Below, one piece after another: positions 8,830 through 27,763 of a stretch of DNA of 36,800 nucleotides (position 1 is its first letter; each line of letters opens with the position of its first letter). Origin of the DNA: a virus (Duplodnaviria > Heunggongvirae > Uroviricota > Caudoviricetes); the IMG/VR virus record IMGVR_UViG_2721755498_000005, one strand, 5' to 3'. The translations under genes were made by a program, and so were the position numbers. The notes below the pieces were generated by a model, which was given only the letters and a program-made list of their open reading frames with translations, was not told the DNA's origin and searched no databases.

Positions 8830-10002
8830 TTACGCGCTGACCTGGCTGGCGAAATTCACCAGGTACTGATCGGTGATGCGCTGACGCAGCATCAGGTTTT
8901 CAAGTGGCGGCACTGGCGTGTAGTCGTAGTCGATGGTGAGTTTTCCGGCTTTCAGCGTGTCTTTGTCGTTCACCGACTCATCCAGCCAGCAATCACCACC
9001 AATGAGATAGCCCTGACTGACCAGGCTGCGCATTTTGGCGCGGATACCTTCGATAATGTCGCGGGCCAGCGACGGGTTAAGCGGTTTATCCACCGCCCAC
9101 ATGTGTGCTTCTGCCATCGTGTCCATCAGCACCTGCGCCGTGCGGGTGTAGTTTTCGAAGGCAAAGAGCGGGTCATCACTCAGGCAGCGGGAACCCCAGA
9201 AGCGGAAACCGTCTTTACGCACAAGCGTGGTGACGTCGTTCTGGTTCAGCAGACCTGCATCGGTTGCCGGGTCCTGCAGATCCCAGAACACATCTGCAGA
9301 AATTCCGGTGACACCGTTCACGCCCACGTTGGACAGGCTTTTGTGCCATCCGGTCTGCTCGTCAATTTTGGCGCGCAGACCAAGCGCACGGGCGGTGGCA
9401 TATGCCGTTGCTTCGGCATTCAGCACCGTGTCCCAGCCAGTAAAGTCAGGCCAGATCAGCATCCCTTCGCGCTGGCTGAAGTTTTCGCGGTAAGTGATCG
9501 CCTCCTGCACTGTCTTGCAGCCATACGCTGACAGGTAAGCAAATCCACGCAGGCTTTGCGCCACGCTCAGCAACTCAGTAGCTACCGCCTTGGTGTCGTG
9601 GCCTGGCACGCCGAGAATGCGCGGTTTAACGCCGAGCTGTGACTGGGCAGATAACAGGGCTTTCATACCTGTTTTTTTACCTTCAGCAGTCACTGCGCCG
9701 ATGATATTGGTCGTGGTTTCGTCTTCCGTTTCACCCTGCGGCACACGCACAACAATGGTCACGGGTTTTGCCTGGTCAGCGATGGCATCCAGCGAACGGG
9801 CCAGAGTACCGGACTCACCCGCTTTACCGCTGGCAGTCAGCACATCAGTGATCAGCACGGGTTTATTAAGAGGAAACATTTTTGCATCGGCATCATCGCC
9901 CGTGCAGACCATACCCACGATGGCGGTGCTCACCGTGGTAATAGATCGGGTGCCTTCGTTGACTTCAACAACGCGCACCCCGTGGTGGTAATCCTGAGCC
10001 AT
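8830..10002 (-). CDS. FI: Contractile tail sheath protein gpFI
   Basis: 390 aa, position and size as P2 FI; AGGAGG RBS upstream. Confidence 0.85.
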
Positions 10003-10078
10003 AGTGGCGAACCTCCTGATTGGATTAGGCTTCGCCCTATGTTGAAGTGATTGTGCCTGACAAACAGCTAAGCGCAGT

Positions 10079-10096
10079 TGTGTCGTTATTCACACA
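10079..10096 (-). promoter_or_regulatory. Candidate Ogr-dependent late promoter element (TGT-N12-ACA dyad) for the FI operon
   Basis: tgtgtcgttattcacaca centred about 86 bp upstream of the FI start codon. Confidence 0.35.
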
Positions 10097-10144
10097 AAAT
10101 AACGGTATTTGTCTGCTTGCAGGGATAATCAACATAATGCTGAT

Positions 10145-10711
10145 TCAGGGGGATTCATTGATCTTATTTGCCGGAAATTTTCTATAAATGGTAGAAACGC
10201 CTACATCAAAAATCAGTGCAATACGCTGTCTTGATTCTCCGGCCTCGAGTAAACGCCCAATCTGTGCCCACTGTTCGGTGGTCAACTTAGGACGGCGTCC
10301 ACCTACTCTGCCTTTGGCACGAGCTGCAGCCAGCCCTGCCCTGGTACGTTCAACTATCAGTTCGCGTTCCATTTCAGCCAGGGCACCCATGACATGAAAA
10401 AAGAAACGGCCCATTGGGGTACTGGTATCAATACTGTCAGTCAGGCTTCTGAAATTCACACCACGCTGGCGCAACTCTTCTATCAGCGTAACAAGATGCC
10501 GCATACTGCGCCCCAACCTGTCCAGCTTCCAGACAACCAGCGTGTCTCCTGCCGATAGTGTCCTGAGTAGTTTTTTCAGCCCCGGTCTGTCGGACTTAGT
10601 GCCACTGATTTTGTCCTCAAAAATCCGCTCACATCCCGCGCAGTTCAGTGCATTACGTTGCAAATCGGTGTTCTGGTCATTTGTTGACACGCGTACATAG
10701 CCAATAAGCAT
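10145..10711 (-). CDS. Serine DNA invertase (Gin/Hin/Cin/Pin family)
   Basis: MLIGYVRVSTNDQNTDLQRNAL... close to Mu Gin along its length; ATG at 10711 with GGGGG RBS; C-terminal HTH. Confidence 0.9.
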   Translation of the reverse strand: MLIGYVRVSTNDQNTDLQRNALNCAGCERIFEDKISGTKSDRPGLKKLLRTLSAGDTLVVWKLDRLGRSMRHLVTLIEELRQRGVNFRSLTDSIDTSTPMGRFFFHVMGALAEMERELIVERTRAGLAAARAKGRVGGRRPKLTTEQWAQIGRLLEAGESRQRIALIFDVGVSTIYRKFPANKINESP

Positions 10712-10738
10712 GATCATCCCCCTGAATAAAAACCGGAG

Positions 10739-11215
10739 ATGATGCCAGTTAGCTGTTACCTCTGCATTTTCTTAAACGTTGGTTTGGGAGAAGGCTCAGC
10801 ATTACCTGTTGGGGTGCCTGTTCCGTGGCCTTCAGCCACTCCGCCAACAGGCTGGTTGAAATGCAATGGTGCGGCTTTTTCTGCTGAAGAATACCCGGAA
10901 CTGGCAAAGGCTTACCCGACAAATAAATTGCCTGATTTACGCGGTGAATTTATTCGTGGATGGGATGATGGGCGTGGGGTGGATTCCTCTCGTGGTTTGT
11001 TGACATCTCAAGACCATTTATTTGCTTCTCATGAGCACTGGTTTGACCAGTACTATGCGCTAAAAAGTTTTGATCCAACGGGAGGTCGGTTCGTAGTTAC
11101 GGCTGATGCTTTTGGGGAACTTATTACGGCAAATTCAATTTCTACGGTATCGGTTGGTGGTTCTGAAACCCGGCCGCGCAACGTCGCATTTAACTATATC
11201 GTGAGGGCAGCCTGA
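10739..11215 (+). CDS. Alternative tail-fibre C-terminal cassette, silent in this orientation
   Basis: ORF enters the crossover site in frame (..VGLGE..), then tail-fibre-tip-like sequence; lacks its own N-terminus, so expressed only after inversion fuses it to the H N-terminal region. Confidence 0.55.
   Translation: MMPVSCYLCIFLNVGLGEGSALPVGVPVPWPSATPPTGWLKCNGAAFSAEEYPELAKAYPTNKLPDLRGEFIRGWDDGRGVDSSRGLLTSQDHLFASHEHWFDQYYALKSFDPTGGRFVVTADAFGELITANSISTVSVGGSETRPRNVAFNYIVRAA
10767..10792. repeat. Left invertase recombination site (hix/gix-like, 12-2-12)
   Basis: ttttcttaaacg tt ggtttgggagaa; the 15 bp ttggtttgggagaag (10779..10793) is a perfect inverted copy of 12612..12626. Confidence 0.6.
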
Positions 11216-11817
11216 TGAATAAAGCCGTATTAAATAACGAACTCATTGCCATAAAAGCGGGAGACATTACCATTTATAATTATGATGGTGAAACGCGGGA
11301 ATATATTTCCACATCAACTGAATATCTTGCGGTTGGCGTCGGTATACCGGCATGTTCTTGTTTAGATGCACCAGTTACACATAAAGCTGGTTATGCAATC
11401 TGCCGTTCTGCAGATTTTAACTCATGGGAATATGTGCCAGACCATCGCGGTAAAATCATCTATAGCACCGAAACAGGAGAATCGAAAGAAATCACAGCTC
11501 CGGGTGATTACCCTGAAAATACAACCACTATCGCCCCGTTAACGCCATATGATAAATGGGATGGTGAGAAATGGGTGACGGATACTGAGGCACAGCATAG
11601 TGCCGCAGTAGACGCGGCAGAAGCACAGCGCCAGTCACTGATTGATGCAGCAATGGCTTCCATTAGTCTGATTCAGCTGAAATTACAGGCCGGACGGAAG
11701 TTGACGCAGGCAGAAACAACCAGACTTAACGCTGTGCTGGATTACATTGACGCGGTGACGGCAACAGATACCAGCACCGCGCCGGATGTCATCTGGCCTG
11801 AACTGCCGGAGGCGTAG
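11215..11817 (+). CDS. Tail fibre assembly chaperone (partner of the silent cassette)
   Basis: 200 aa with conserved Tfa C-terminus ...VLDYIDAVTATDTSTAPDVIWPELPEA. Confidence 0.7.
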   Translation: MNKAVLNNELIAIKAGDITIYNYDGETREYISTSTEYLAVGVGIPACSCLDAPVTHKAGYAICRSADFNSWEYVPDHRGKIIYSTETGESKEITAPGDYPENTTTIAPLTPYDKWDGEKWVTDTEAQHSAAVDAAEAQRQSLIDAAMASISLIQLKLQAGRKLTQAETTRLNAVLDYIDAVTATDTSTAPDVIWPELPEA

Positions 11818-12241
11818 GCCATTCAATATCTGGCGCACCGGAAGTATCGACTAGCACCAGTGCGTCCAGATAATCCAGCCACAAATTATATTGCGCCAGT
11901 TCGTCATCTTTCAGACGACCAATAGCGGCTTTACCGGGCCATTGCTTACTGTTCATGTATTCGTTGGCCTGGTTAATTAGTAGCTGTCTTTCTGATTCAG
12001 TAATTTCAATAAGCTCTTCATGCGTGGGTGGAGGAATATCTGCCCACGCAGGCATCCCATCATCTCCGGCAATACGGATTTTTCCTTGTGGCGGTTCAGC
12101 CATAAACTCACTGATAATATTTTGATTCACCTCCTTTGCATCTGATAAATCCCATCCCTCTGATTTATATTTATCAATCATATCCACAGGGAAAAAAGCA
12201 TTATGCCTTGCGCTATAAACATATTCGTTCATATAAATCAC
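11789..12241 (-). CDS. G: Tail fibre assembly chaperone gpG (active orientation)
   Basis: 150 aa with Tfa C-terminal motif ...WLDYLDALVLVDTSGAPDIEWPTPP; directly downstream of H. Confidence 0.7.
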   Translation of the reverse strand: MIYMNEYVYSARHNAFFPVDMIDKYKSEGWDLSDAKEVNQNIISEFMAEPPQGKIRIAGDDGMPAWADIPPPTHEELIEITESERQLLINQANEYMNSKQWPGKAAIGRLKDDELAQYNLWLDYLDALVLVDTSGAPDIEWPTPPAVQAR

Positions 12242-12252
12242 CCTGAATAAAA

Positions 12253-13674
12253 TTACTCACCAACAGCCCACCAACTGTAATTCATCGATACTGTGGAACT
12301 GGTTGATGCAGTTCTGTAAGCGGAATTAAAACCGGTTAATGTTGGGCCTTCTGCAGTCATCATGAACCCTCGCCCAGCACCTAAAGGCGCACCACCATCA
12401 CCAGAATGAGTAAGCATGGCGCAGTCCACTTTTTTAGGAAAAGGGATGCTGAATGTAATTCTCATTGTTTGCGTCGATAATGTCGGCGTAACCGCACCAC
12501 GACCATATTGCAGGATTTTCCCGTTGGGTAATTTCATCCATCCATCACCACTGGCAAAAGAGGCCATGTCCGGTATCTGATTTTCCCCTGTCCCCACATC
12601 CCGTTTTGCCGCTTCTCCCAAACCAAGGTATGCGAGAAGACCTGCTACATCCTTTCCACTCAAATGAGTCAGCGTATTGTCCAGCGGTTGTTTACCTGCC
12701 AGCGCATTAAGCATTGTCGTGGCAAAGTTCGGATCATTCCCCAGTGCCGCCGCCAGTTCGTTCAGTGTATCCAGTGCCGCAGGTGCAGAACCCACCATTG
12801 CCGCAATCGCCGATTTCACAAATGCCGTGGTGGCAATCTGTGTATTGTTGACCGACTGTGCCGCAGTAGGTGCTGTTGGCGTTCCGGTGAGTGCCGGACT
12901 CGACAGCGGCGCTTTCAGTGCCAGCGCATTATTAATAGTGGTACTGAATTTCGGGTCATTGTTAATGGCTGCGGCAATTTCTTTCAGTGTGTCCAGCGTG
13001 GCTGGCGCACCGTTAATCAGAGCAGTAATAGCGGCCTGAACAAACTCTGTGGTCGCAATCCGAGTGGTGTTATTTCCTGCTGCAGGCGTCGGCGCTTTTG
13101 GTTCTCCGGTAAATGTCGGATTATGTTTCTGCGCATACTGGGTATGAGGATCTTGTGCGGCAATGTGGTTTCTCATCTGGTCATCCACATACAGCTTTAA
13201 TTCCAGGACTTTATCATCCACGTATTTACGGGTTGCCAGCACTACAGCAGGGTCGATTTTCAGGGTGATATTGTCCGTACTGCTGGTAATCAGCACCATG
13301 CGCACGGTCTGGGTGCGCCCGCTGCCTTCAGCCAGTTGCGGCTTATAGCTTTCCGGGCAGTTGCCCACGGCAATCAATGCCCCGGACTCATCAAACAGGC
13401 CCACTTCACGTATCCACCAACCGCCCTCGTTTTCAGGGATCACCTGTTCAGCAATAATCTGGCTGCTGTTCTGCGGGTCGATATAAAGCATATTCAGCGC
13501 AGCCCGGCGTTTCTCATTTACCAGTGCCGTCTGCTTTGCGTCCGGCGTTGGCAATACTCCGCCGCCATCGCCCACCGCCATATGGGTAATTTTTAGCGGC
13601 ACACCGAGCGCGGCGGCGCTGGCAAGTTTCGCCGCGCCAATATCCGTCAGCAGGGTATAAAATTTTGTGCTCAT
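12253..13674 (-). CDS. H: Tail fibre protein gpH (constant N-terminus plus currently joined variable C-terminus)
   Basis: 473 aa; N-terminus MS.KF.T..T..GAAKLA...MAVGDGGG as in P2 H; crossover site at codon about 349. Confidence 0.8.
   Translation of the reverse strand: MSTKFYTLLTDIGAAKLASAAALGVPLKITHMAVGDGGGVLPTPDAKQTALVNEKRRAALNMLYIDPQNSSQIIAEQVIPENEGGWWIREVGLFDESGALIAVGNCPESYKPQLAEGSGRTQTVRMVLITSSTDNITLKIDPAVVLATRKYVDDKVLELKLYVDDQMRNHIAAQDPHTQYAQKHNPTFTGEPKAPTPAAGNNTTRIATTEFVQAAITALINGAPATLDTLKEIAAAINNDPKFSTTINNALALKAPLSSPALTGTPTAPTAAQSVNNTQIATTAFVKSAIAAMVGSAPAALDTLNELAAALGNDPNFATTMLNALAGKQPLDNTLTHLSGKDVAGLLAYLGLGEAAKRDVGTGENQIPDMASFASGDGWMKLPNGKILQYGRGAVTPTLSTQTMRITFSIPFPKKVDCAMLTHSGDGGAPLGAGRGFMMTAEGPTLTGFNSAYRTASTSSTVSMNYSWWAVGE
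12613..12638. repeat. Right invertase recombination site inside gene H
   Basis: ttctcccaaacc aa ggtatgcgagaa; resembles the hix/gix centre AAACCAAGGT; inverted copy of the left site. Confidence 0.6.
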
Positions 13675-14276
13675 GGATTCACTCTCATTGTGTCAATAAC
13701 ATGGACCGCCCCGCCTTCATGCGCGGTGCCACCGGAAATAATCGTTTCGTTGATATACGGATAGATCGTGATTTCTTCGCCAAGATAGCTGGCGGCTCCC
13801 ACCCAATGCGGGCCGCTGGTCTGCAGATTGATGGACATGCCGATCATGTGGCGGCTACATGGTTTGGCATCGCTTATCAGTCGCTCAAGTTCCAGATAGG
13901 TATCTTCAGTGATGCCCTGGTCCTGCACGCCGATATCTAGGCGAAACGTGCCCGCTGCCTCTCCGGTCTGCCACCACTCAATAATGCGGATCAGAAAGCC
14001 GAACGGCTCCACCACCCGCCGCACGGCACTGGTGGTCCCTTTATGCTGATGAATATAAAAAGCATCCTTCACCACCTGGCGCTTGACGCTTTCTGTCCAG
14101 CCCTCGTCCCAGCGATCCACAGAGAACGCCCAGGCGAGATAAGGCAGGAAACTGACCGGACAGGTTGCCGGATTCCACAAGTCACGAAGCGGCACCTGCA
14201 GATCAGAAATCCCGCTGCAGGTTTGCGCCAGTCGGCGCTCCAGTGGTGTTGAACCCGGTGGCAGCAGACTATTCAT
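13671..14276 (-). CDS. I: Baseplate/tail protein gpI
   Basis: 201 aa; resembles P2 gpI (ELWNP..CP...LP.LAWAFSVDRWDE.W); ATGA overlap with H. Confidence 0.75.
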   Translation of the reverse strand: MNSLLPPGSTPLERRLAQTCSGISDLQVPLRDLWNPATCPVSFLPYLAWAFSVDRWDEGWTESVKRQVVKDAFYIHQHKGTTSAVRRVVEPFGFLIRIIEWWQTGEAAGTFRLDIGVQDQGITEDTYLELERLISDAKPCSRHMIGMSINLQTSGPHWVGAASYLGEEITIYPYINETIISGGTAHEGGAVHVIDTMRVNP

Positions 14277-16190: not shown

Positions 16191-16952
16191 ATGAAAGACA
16201 ATTTAAATCTTCTTATAAAAAAATTAATAAGAAAGGCATTTCCTGAATTTAGCAATAAGGTAACATGGACTTTACTCACTGCAGGGATCGGTATTCTTGC
16301 ACTACCTGCACCCACATATTTATTATTCGTAAACCTTATAATTGATTTTTACAACAAAACAACTAATTCAGAAATAAGCCTTCTTAAGATTGATAGCATT
16401 ACACCAAGTAGTGGGGTTGCTTTAACTTTAATTCTATCCGGGCTAGTCTTTCACCTATTAATAAAAGTCCCCCATATATACCAAGAAATTCTAAAAGAGA
16501 ATAACCAAAAAGAAATACAGGAAAGAAAAAGAGTAGCAGACGTTAAACTTTATGAGGCATTTATTGATATTCTACCAACAACCTCGTTATCAATTGAATT
16601 CTTAAAAGACCATAATTTTGAAAACTCCTATCATGATAATAATACAAAAGATATTAGTAATCTTGAATACGGGTGGGGTCATGCAGATCAACATTTTCAT
16701 GACAATGAAATTGAAGATAAAGCCACTCATCTTTACAGTGAAATAATAAAGTTTAATTATTTTCTCGCTTATAAATCGCACAATATCAATAACTATATGT
16801 TTAGCATGCTTACTGACAGAGATCGAGCTATGGTGATGGAATTACTACCTCAAACAAAGGAAAATATAAAAATAGCCAATGAGTGGAGTTCTACAATTCA
16901 TCAGCTTTACTGTGACTTTATCTCCACATGTAGGAATAACTTAGCCATATAA
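16191..16952 (+). CDS. Hypothetical membrane protein, AT-rich moron between V and S
   Basis: 253 aa ORF with AAGGA RBS; visibly AT-rich against GC-rich flanking phage genes; two predicted N-terminal TM helices; opposite strand to the surrounding late operons. Confidence 0.5.
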   Translation: MKDNLNLLIKKLIRKAFPEFSNKVTWTLLTAGIGILALPAPTYLLFVNLIIDFYNKTTNSEISLLKIDSITPSSGVALTLILSGLVFHLLIKVPHIYQEILKENNQKEIQERKRVADVKLYEAFIDILPTTSLSIEFLKDHNFENSYHDNNTKDISNLEYGWGHADQHFHDNEIEDKATHLYSEIIKFNYFLAYKSHNINNYMFSMLTDRDRAMVMELLPQTKENIKIANEWSSTIHQLYCDFISTCRNNLAI

Positions 16953-25715: not shown

Positions 25716-25746
25716 ACAAAAAGGCCATTAAATGGCCTTTTTGTTT
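25716..25746. terminator. Bidirectional rho-independent terminator between Q and the retron RT
   Basis: aaaaaggccatt aa atggccttttt hairpin with an A-run on one side and a T-run on the other; overlaps the RT stop codon. Confidence 0.5.
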
Positions 25747-26702
25747 TTAGGAAAAAGAACACTTAGATCAACCCCATATGCTTCAGACATTTTATTTGAG
25801 AAAGTCATCAATTTTCTATAGTTTTTCTTGTCTACACTTTTAACAAACGCAATAAGTCCTTTAACATGTTCGAAATCAGAATTTCTTTTTACCGCCAGAT
25901 AATGGATCTTACTTCTAATTTCGCGATAACGTATTCTGCCAACTCCAACATTATCAATAGATAAAACGAGCCCAGTAACCTCCTTCCTTGCTTTGGGGCC
26001 ATGAATCGCAACTTTATTATAATTAACCTTCAAAGATTCACTTGGTATTATAGAGCATACAAATGACTTAGCTTTAAGTATTTTTTTTAAAGATTGAGCA
26101 GATAAAGTCAAATCATCGGCATATCGAGTAAATACGATCCCCTTACTACCTGCATATCCATGTATTCTATAATCTAATTTAGTTAAAACAAGATTCGCAA
26201 TCTTTGGAGAAGATGGTGCACCTTGAGGTAGCGAACCATTAAATGAACACAATCTTGCTAAAGCATTAGAAATAGTAGAGTTATACCCCAGAGAATGAAA
26301 AACAGTATAGATTTTCTCTATCAGAATAGTATTAAAACAATCTTCTAAATCAATATTTAATACATAGTTAGCTCCTACATGTGGGCTGGCATTATTTAAT
26401 ATTGATTGCCCTTTTTCAAAGCCTTTGGAAAATGGGGATGAATGTAACTTATCAAGGATGTTTCTTAACACCCAAGCTTGCAATGCCTTCAGCTCACGTG
26501 ATGGCTGTGAAATGATGCGGGATCTCTTGCCATCTCTTTTTGGCAACGAATAAACCTTATAGTATTTGTCAGCACGATAAATGTACAACCGGAGTATGTC
26601 TACTGATAAACGCATTTCTCTAGACATATCCTCTAAAGAGGACATAACAGGCAATCCAAGATTGCGTAAGCGAAAAACCTGAGATGGTGTTGCGGAAGTC
26701 AT
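25728..26702 (-). CDS. Retron-type reverse transcriptase
   Basis: 324 aa; RT motifs NIDLEDCF and FTRYADDLTLS (YxDD); size like retron RTs; ATG directly after the a2 repeat of the msr-msd. Confidence 0.85.
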   Translation of the reverse strand: MTSATPSQVFRLRNLGLPVMSSLEDMSREMRLSVDILRLYIYRADKYYKVYSLPKRDGKRSRIISQPSRELKALQAWVLRNILDKLHSSPFSKGFEKGQSILNNASPHVGANYVLNIDLEDCFNTILIEKIYTVFHSLGYNSTISNALARLCSFNGSLPQGAPSSPKIANLVLTKLDYRIHGYAGSKGIVFTRYADDLTLSAQSLKKILKAKSFVCSIIPSESLKVNYNKVAIHGPKARKEVTGLVLSIDNVGVGRIRYREIRSKIHYLAVKRNSDFEHVKGLIAFVKSVDKKNYRKLMTFSNKMSEAYGVDLSVLFPKNKKAI

Positions 26703-26866
26703 GAGCGCACCCTTACGTCATAAAAATCAGATTCCGAAGTGAAAGGAGAACATCGGGAGATGTTCTCCTTTCAATGAGGGAACTGGTAAAACTTCAGATT
26801 GTATGTAGGACAGCGAAACACTGTCCAGTGAACTTCCGGAGAAGCCACTCGCTAAGGGTGCGCAAA
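26703..26866 (-). ncRNA. Retron msr-msd non-coding RNA (template for multicopy single-stranded DNA)
   Basis: Flanking 11-13 bp inverted repeats (26705..26717 gcgcacccttacg and 26851..26863 cgtaagggtgcgc) in a1/a2 arrangement; perfect 14 bp stem with 4 nt loop at 26741..26772; minus-strand 5' end TGCGCACCCTTAGCGAG and 3' end GACGTAAGGGTGCGC match my recollection of Ec86. Confidence 0.65.
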
Positions 26867-27763
26867 ACGCATCCTATCATAGTGGAGTATTGTTTTACCA
26901 CGATTTTCGAAGTTCATCATATCCAGTCGTAGATTGTCCAAAGCCTTTCGATCAAAATGCTCAAGAACGTATTGCATACCAATTTCTGTAATATGGTATC
27001 CTTGAACTGAACGCCTAATTATTGACTCTTTAATCAAGCTTGAAATAACAGACTTAACGATAATTTCACAAAGAATAGCATCTTTCTTAGTCACCAAATG
27101 TAATAGCTCATATAGAAGTATATTATCTATACCATCCATCAAATATATACATGGCAGTATAAAACGCCGAGCGTGAAGAATATTATCTATTGAGTGATTA
27201 ACTGGGTTATTTTTTTTGATGTCATTAATACTTTTTATAATTCTATTATAAAAAGCTTTACCTGTACTCAAGCTTTCAAGAGTCGACAAATCTCCTCGCA
27301 ATACTGCACCGCTATTAGCACGCCGAAGCAGTTTTATAGGCCCATAATTAAGAAAGCTTTTTTTAAGTTTGAATTTGTCATCCTGAAGACATATCATTTT
27401 TTTGCACAGTTTTTCATTATTTGAAAATGCGCCCAATTCAGCGAAAGACCCTGGGCTTTCAGGAATAATAATAATAACATCGACTGAATCAGCTAAAATA
27501 TTCTCCAAACTTAAAAGACTATGCTGACCTTGTCCATACAAAAGCTCATCAAACAACTCCTCAGGATAGAATATTTCTATTTTGGGATGTGTTTCCAACA
27601 CTCTTTTAACTTTATTTCTACAAAAAAACGGATCATTCAAATCGCCCCCGCAAAGGAAAACAGTAACTTTATTTTTATTTTTCTGTTGAAAAAGCCGACT
27701 TTTAATTAAATTTGCCAGATTTTGCTTCTGCAACTCCGGAATAGTTTTCTTTTTCATATCCAC
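26852..27763 (-). CDS. Retron effector, nucleoside 2-deoxyribosyltransferase-like (NDT-like) protein
   Basis: 303 aa AT-rich ORF immediately upstream of the msr-msd; motif IIIIPESPGSFAELGAF resembles the NDT catalytic-glutamate motif; stop codon lies inside the a1 repeat. Confidence 0.7.
   Translation of the reverse strand: MDMKKKTIPELQKQNLANLIKSRLFQQKNKNKVTVFLCGGDLNDPFFCRNKVKRVLETHPKIEIFYPEELFDELLYGQGQHSLLSLENILADSVDVIIIIPESPGSFAELGAFSNNEKLCKKMICLQDDKFKLKKSFLNYGPIKLLRRANSGAVLRGDLSTLESLSTGKAFYNRIIKSINDIKKNNPVNHSIDNILHARRFILPCIYLMDGIDNILLYELLHLVTKKDAILCEIIVKSVISSLIKESIIRRSVQGYHITEIGMQYVLEHFDRKALDNLRLDMMNFENRGKTILHYDRMRFAHP

Follow-up and report, generated by a model that had tools for sequence, protein, structure and literature searches.

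A probable host-range switch by Pin/Gin-type DNA inversion in a P2-like Escherichia coli prophage

We analysed the tail-fibre region of a P2-like prophage in IMG/VR record IMGVR_UViG_2721755498_000005, a stretch of 36,800 nucleotides (the window, by which we mean the whole of this DNA), where tail-fibre gene H lies close to a gene for a site-specific recombinase. The window is E. coli chromosome with a P2-like prophage adjoining grxA. Its first 3.1 kb (ybjL-ybjM-grxA, then ogr) are 100% identical to several complete E. coli genomes, and the remainder is the prophage, whose late region is 96-97% identical to deposited P2-like phages over 80-85%. On the minus strand, baseplate genes J and I are followed by H (12253..13674 in full, 473 amino acids [aa]) and by a gene for a tail-fibre assembly chaperone, Tfa. 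Past this tfa gene come two plus-strand open reading frames (ORFs), which encode a second, 200-aa Tfa and a fibre C-terminus with a Collar domain; these are followed by the recombinase gene, again on the minus strand, and then by the sheath gene. The coordinates are collected in the table.

Features of the tail-fibre and invertase locus (positions in the window)
Feature	Position	Strand	Evidence or remark
Ogr-type activator site TGT-N12-ACA, sheath (PF) late promoter	10079..10096	.	read directly from the sequence
DNA invertase, 188 aa, small serine recombinase, Pin/Gin/Cin/Hin subfamily	10145..10711	-	outside the invertible segment; Pfam, structure-sequence match, identities
Putative recombinational (Fis) enhancer in the invertase 5' coding region	10627..10690	-	synonymous constraint; candidate G-N13-C cores
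Invertase-proximal crossover site, TTTTCTTAAACG-TT-GGTTTGGGAGAA	10767..10792	+	56-81 nt 5' of the invertase ATG
Invertible segment, 1,848 bp between central dinucleotides	10779..12626	.	in-silico inversion; breakpoints of natural inverted alleles L002 and L003 inside the 15-bp core
Silent alternative H C-terminus, Phage Tail Collar domain	10781..11215	+	PF07484, 9.9e-16
Tail-fibre assembly chaperone Tfa of the silent cassette, 200 aa	11215..11817	+	PF02413, 1.2e-32
Tail-fibre assembly chaperone Tfa of the expressed cassette, 150 aa	11789..12241	-	PF02413, 2.1e-30
Variable H C-terminus now expressed, gp53-like_C domain	12253..12626	-	PF21882, 5.7e-12; continuous with constant H
Crossover site in H, TTCTCGCATACC-TT-GGTTTGGGAGAA	12613..12638	-	encodes L-A-Y-L-G-L-G-E
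Constant N-terminal part of tail-fibre H, about 349 codons	12627..13674	-	outside the segment; PF12571, 6.2e-65
Draft contigs of relatives starting within, at or up to 10 nt before the site			L008, L014, L015, L020, L027, L031, L033, L036, L039, L040, L062, L070, L071

Translation of the recombinase ORF (10145..10717) probably begins at the ATG of 10711, which gives a length that matches the RefSeq annotation in relatives. Pfam assigned residues 3-135 to Resolvase (PF00239, 2.2e-53) and residues 138-181 to HTH_7 (PF02796, 1.4e-15), and the protein aligned end to end with the sequences of the Mu Gin crystal structures 3UJ3 and 4M6F (E=1e-92). A specific NCBIfam model for these proteins was not found. 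The initial annotation had presented it as a 188-aa serine invertase very similar to Mu Gin. The length and the serine type stood, and identity to Gin is 75.7%, but the closest named relative is PinE of e14 (85.3%); the invertase of a P2-like element in enteropathogenic E. coli (EPEC) is 77.7% identical. The recombinase being of the serine type, the locus is not an Rci-type shufflon like that of R64, in which a tyrosine recombinase acts on sfx repeats. The ORF is intact and keeps every catalytic residue: Ser9, whose possible inactivation had been raised beforehand, stands unaltered within GYVRVSTNDQ, and the active-site residues R7, D64, R65 and R68 are all there. The protein also has wild-type-like H106 and M114; hyperactive Fis-independent mutants map to the equivalent positions (Hin-H107Y; Gin structures carry V114). 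McLean et al. listed the residues uniquely conserved in Fis-dependent invertases as Hin Q151, R154 and L155 together with basic residues at 47, 48 and 51 (PMC3798978). The corresponding residues here, with numbering equal to that of Hin minus 1, are Q150/R153/L154 and K46/K47/R50.

Next to the invertase gene, two 26-bp sites lie in inverted orientation, each with a central TT on the H-sense strand and both with a common inner half-site. Their inverted-repeat arms (10767-10793 and 12612-12638) are 27 nt long, 81% complementary and 1818 nt apart; they form the top inverted pair of the region and contain a perfect 15-bp core, TTGGTTTGGGAGAAG, at 10779-10793 and 12612-12626. A hix-like 26-mer pattern had exactly two matches in the 36.8 kb, these being the two crossover sites, with 0.00 expected in shuffles. 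Further crossover sites, as in a shufflon (p15B Min or the three-repeat EPEC P2-like locus), were not found anywhere in the window at up to 3 mismatches. For comparison we used the Mu gix sites as annotated in the sequence record and the repeats of e14 and EPEC as given in Table S1 of PMC4272514. The half-sites are TTTTCTTAAACG, TTCTCGCATACC and the common TTCTCCCAAACC, as against TTATCCAAAACC in Mu, whose gix reads TTATCCAAAACC-TC-GGTTTACAGGAA. The initial annotation had called for an alignment to the gix/hix/cix consensus; in the comparison with Mu gix, the sites have the same arrangement of half-site, central dinucleotide and half-site. The EPEC E2348/69 P2-like locus has an identical proximal site, and the e14 site differs from it at 1 nt. 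The core equals that of the e14 and EPEC Mu repeats, and the repeats of Table S1 carry it as AAACCTTGGTTTGGGAGAA(GG) (PMC4272514). The repeats are conserved in relatives, being shared with e14, EPEC and many genera. In most loci where a site was detected it lies at -80..-55 from the invertase start codon, and the -80 position is kept across genera.

The initial annotation had described a 1.85 kb segment between inverted 26-bp sites (10767..10792 and 12613..12638) with a 15-bp core, had put one site at the GLGE codons of H and the other at the start of a silent cassette, had given each cassette its own Tfa with a convergent overlap, and had proposed that inversion swaps the H C-terminus together with its chaperone. 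Whatever could be tested of this held. The coordinates are correct, and both sites read in the fibre frame, the proximal one as ...N-V-G-L-G-E in frame with the silent C-terminus. Both chaperones belong to PF02413, and their genes overlap convergently by 29 nt (11789-11817); one piece of DNA therefore encodes, on its two strands, the C-termini of both chaperones. When the segment was inverted in silico by exchange at the central dinucleotides (10779-12626), the resulting H' was in frame and 494 aa long, so that the fibre frame is intact in both orientations (H, 473 aa; H', 494 aa). The 141 aa that follow GLGE in the silent cassette match the H expressed in E. coli FLI21 at 100% identity. The 150-aa Tfa is 70% identical to its EPEC homologue and 50% to TfaP of e14, and the 200-aa Tfa is 92.5% identical to TfaE of e14. 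The 29-nt overlap of the tfa genes is likewise conserved in the P2-like locus of EPEC, e14 and further prophages of E. coli.

Both orientations occur among natural relatives. We counted orientation in 5,426 complete E. coli genomes at a threshold of at least 80% coverage; the orientation of the window was present in 78 and the in-silico inverted one in 95, the close relatives counted being loci 95-99% identical. The chicken isolates GPEC1366 and GPEC1040 provide a matched pair: their flanks are 100% and 99.95% identical, and a 1,914-bp middle part is inverted at 99.95% identity. The alignments of this pair overlap only inside the 15-bp core, which marks the breakpoints. In E. coli FLI21 the segment of the window is found inverted at 98.3% identity. 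Goldberg et al. (2014) deep-sequenced clonal cultures and found that orientations coexist at e14, at a Mu prophage and at two P2-like prophages of EPEC E2348/69; confirmation by polymerase chain reaction (PCR) is stated there for the e14 locus and for a four-variant P2-like locus (PMC4272514).

The invertase gene also carries a putative Fis enhancer in its 5' coding region, where the initial annotation had proposed to look for one; there are two patches of synonymous constraint at the expected position, the Fis sites themselves being putative. We aligned 66 unique invertase genes by codon and scored synonymous identity per codon. This was 0.88-0.97 at codons 9-12 (TCA ACA AAT GAC) and 0.83-0.87 at codons 25-27 (GCA GGA TGT), with a background of about 0.2-0.5. 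The six columns of greatest excess all lay within the first 27 codons, and the best four-codon window was codons 9-12 (permutation p=0.02). The constrained patches coincide with two candidate 15-bp G-N13-C cores, GTGTCAACAAATGAC (10676-10690) and GCGCGGGATGTGAGC (10627-10641), at a spacing of about 48-49 bp (15-mer centres 49 bp apart). Between the putative Fis sites the sequence reads ATTTG...TAATG, which matches the ATTTA/TAATG spacers between the Fis sites of the hin enhancer (PMC3798978), and the candidate in the window occupies the same recombinase-gene codons as that Fis-dependent element. The patches give indirect support to an embedded enhancer, which is established inside the invertase gene for Gin, Cin and Hin and putative in the window.

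Taken as a whole, the locus is very probably a switch of phage host range that works by site-specific DNA inversion of the Pin/Gin type. If it follows the Hin/Gin paradigm, invertase dimers would bind both 26-bp sites and synapse on an enhancer bound by Fis, which the invertase gene itself would carry in its 5' end, some 100 bp away from the proximal site. Ser9 would then cut both sites at the central TT/AA dinucleotide, one pair of subunits would rotate by 180 degrees, and religation would invert 10779-12626. The sequence shows what is transcribed late: the V-operon promoter always leads into the constant part of H and then into the cassette that faces it. The present orientation is accordingly read as the gp53-like C-terminus with the 150-aa Tfa, and the inverted one as the Collar C-terminus with the 200-aa TfaE-like chaperone. 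By analogy to Mu and P1, a population of lysogens would release two types of virion differing in receptor specificity, and the fibre ending in gp53-like_C and the one ending in Collar, each paired with its cognate Tfa, may well recognise different receptors.

Several observations weigh against this interpretation. The outer half-sites read AAACG and ATACC where the consensus is AAACC. Inside the putative second Fis site, codon 25 of the invertase gene is GCG in the window and in the E. coli loci closest to it, and GCA in 54 of the 66 invertase genes, and this change could lower the inversion rate. A simple sigma-70 scan for an invertase promoter did not find the consensus. The evidence for a difference in host range between the orientations is that the C-terminal domains differ (gp53-like_C vs Collar), and that for ongoing flipping in this exact prophage comes from its relatives, which suggest that it continues here. 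Some of these points would suit a locus that looks intact in its parts and has ceased to invert, or that needs invertases supplied in trans by other prophages (e.g. e14 Pin), so that its orientation is effectively fixed: the imperfect outer half-sites, the rare synonymous GCG in putative Fis site II and the lack of a detectable strong promoter could all be read in this way, and the ratio of 93:7 reported for the EPEC P2-like locus (PMC4272514) indicates that strong bias is possible at such loci. However, the same GCG allele and the same sites are present in three related loci (L001, L002 and L003) that occur in both orientations, the invertase ORF is intact with all its catalytic residues, and the proximal site is identical to one that is experimentally active. 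Because identical alleles occur in both orientations, we consider a fixed relic unlikely.

We regard it as scarcely credible that the two orientations among genomes arose through RecA-dependent recombination between the repeats, or through horizontal replacement of the cassette block, and not through the adjacent invertase: tail-fibre cassettes are indeed mosaic and exchanged among P2-like, Mu-like and lambdoid elements, and TfaE is 92% identical between e14 and the window prophage though the H constant parts differ, but the perfect repeat has 15 bp only, far below efficient RecA substrates, the breakpoints of the GPEC pair fall exactly in the core with 99.95-100% identity elsewhere and no imported DNA seen, and the repeat is built as a hix/gix half-site, central dinucleotide and half-site, its distance from the invertase gene being constant in more than 20 genera.

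An invertase-driven switch of this kind is not new, contrary to what the initial annotation had implied: switches in P2-like E. coli prophages have already been described, experimentally demonstrated and routinely annotated. Invertase genes with duplicate fibre and tfa genes are annotated in deposited phages, e.g. pro483 and Cartapus, and a 2024 preprint reports invertases with adjacent inversions in the Z/fun hotspot of P2. The locus adds nothing conceptually beyond those of Mu, P1, e14 and the EPEC P2-like prophages. One of the closest counterparts is the P2-like locus of EPEC E2348/69 (NC_011601.1 2977580-2979467; PMC4272514), where the invertase gene likewise adjoins the sheath gene of a P2-type tail module. 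It shares with the window the identical proximal 26-bp site, the 29-nt tfa overlap and the cassette families (gp53-like with Tfa, Collar with a TfaE-like protein), and both orientations coexist there by sequencing, PCR confirmation in that study having concerned other loci. In contrast to the window, its invertase is 77.7% identical only and its cassettes are 70-93% identical; the element is a remnant, with an integrase fragment in place of the constant part of H, and its outer distal half-site is degenerate.

The P-region/Pin system of e14 in E. coli K-12 (pinE, stfP-tfaP / tfaE-stfE), where inversion has been experimentally demonstrated, contributes the closest named invertase, the crossover core AAAC(C/G)TTGGTTTGGGAGAAG, a TfaE 92.5% identical to the chaperone of the silent cassette and the same convergent tfa overlap. 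Unlike the window prophage, e14 is a defective lambdoid element whose fibre constant part is unrelated to P2 H, and its second cassette (StfP/TfaP) is about 50% identical only. The G segment of Mu with Gin, and likewise the C segment of P1 with Cin, match in layout, with a constant 5' part of the fibre gene, a site, Sv-U, inverted U'-Sv', a second site and a co-directional invertase gene (S-U/U'-S'-gin in Mu). Mu also shares the 26-bp sites with the half-site pattern TTxTCxxAAACC, whereas its segment is 3 kb long, its repeats are perfect over 34 bp, its central dinucleotide is TC, its fibres and chaperones are others, and it belongs to another phage family (Mu vs Peduoviridae). The Hin/hix flagellar switch of Salmonella has a recombinase of the same subfamily and 26-bp sites; unlike the invertase gene of the window, hin lies inside its segment, and the switch flips a promoter and not a coding 3' end.

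Phage P2 itself was said to lack the switch, and this is so: H, G, fun(Z) and FI are there and the invertase is not. The late-gene order V-W-J-I-H-G...FI is homologous and the PF activator site is conserved, with the Ogr-type site of the window about 85 nt from the FI ATG, the same as the annotated activator site of P2. Since that site stands at a P2-like distance before the sheath gene, the recombinase gene and the segment occupy the Z/fun hotspot of P2 (between G and FI). Identity to P2 is 54% for the constant part of H (against P2 H residues 1-332) and 56% for gpI. P2 differs in having fun(Z) where the window has the invertase and in having a single H-G cassette. P2 H itself (L087, 1858-1883) has just one sequence, TTATCGAATATCTCGGTTTACAGGAA, that agrees with Mu gixL (23 of 26 positions) and falls just after the part of H homologous to the constant region of the window prophage. 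As P2 has neither an invertase nor a second site, this vestigial gix-like sequence looks like a fossil crossover site.

The invertase has relatives at 79 loci in more than 25 enterobacterial genera. The complete P2-type surroundings (I, the H constant part, cassettes, invertase and sheath) are seen again in Dryocola, Siccibacter, Pseudocitrobacter, Pantoea and Mixta; partial contigs of Enterobacter, Pantoea and Mixta contain the invertase-sheath junction only. Thirteen draft contigs of other genera start within the 26-bp site, at its first base or at most 10 nt before it. Such breaks are expected from cultures mixed in orientation, and multi-copy invertase genes could also contribute. One of these contigs (L008) has 716 bp only at about 3x coverage, which suggests several invertase copies in its genome.

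In RefSeq records of related genomes (L001 4349-4738, L002 3191-4737), H appears as a pseudogene, as frameshifted, or split into 'phage tail protein' and 'gp53-like' coding sequences; automatic annotation thus mishandles the invertible fibre gene. For annotators the practical point is that H of such prophages has two alternative 3' ends, which RefSeq splits or mislabels ('phage tail protein', 'gp53-like domain-containing protein', pseudogenes), and that draft assemblies break at the crossover site. Both cassettes should enter host-range prediction for P2-like phages and tailocins.

About 30-45 nt 5' of the invertase start, a TGGCAT(G/C)AT motif is invariant in Mu, e14, EPEC and many genera, with flanks that vary. 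Its place in the window is 10739-10747 on the plus strand, where the minus strand reads TGGCATCAT. The motif might represent an extended -10-like element (TGnCATCAT) of a putative invertase promoter, which is more plausible than a sigma-54-like element; the latter reading was set aside, as the -12 GC is missing from the window and from many relatives. If an extended -10 element adjoins the crossover site, autoregulation of the invertase would be possible. A hairpin sequestering the Shine-Dalgarno sequence 5' of the invertase gene was also considered and rejected: small hairpins occur in single loci, mutually out of register, and the RNAalifold consensus pairs none. A terminator scan gave a weak hairpin only, at 10750-10731, and an Rfam scan of 9900-13800 returned zero matches.

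The complement of the same motif supplies the ATG of an orphan ORF, and RefSeq annotates such ORFs. The ORF of the Collar-domain cassette can start at 10739/10742, at a fixed ATG outside the segment that is preceded by GGAG and shares the frame of GLGE. In either orientation, the cassette turned towards the invertase therefore yields a separate ORF (about 136-158 aa), with its chaperone gene coming next. Selection on this ORF was considered and rejected; among 17 relatives with ATG-CCA it is open in 11 and has stops in 6, about what chance gives, and we take it for a by-product. It is very doubtful that the invertase-proximal 'silent' cassette is not fully silent. If lysogens did express the orphan ORF, its product could, as a free receptor-binding domain, serve for receptor masking or exclusion.

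Two further loci of the prophage may be mentioned. A 253-aa ORF at 16191-16952 lies on the plus strand, opposite to the surrounding late tail/baseplate block, and has a very low GC content (0.335). Searches with Pfam and PADLOC gave no match for it; it is probably a moron at the position of P2 orf30. The old/tin cargo hotspot of P2, between the portal gene and gpA, carries a type II-A retron (25728-27763, minus strand). Its reverse transcriptase (25728-26702) was recognised by PADLOC as RT_II-A (4.9e-123) and by Pfam as RVT_1, its NDT-type effector (26852-27763) matched NDT_II-A (2.6e-97), and the GC content of the region is low (0.37).

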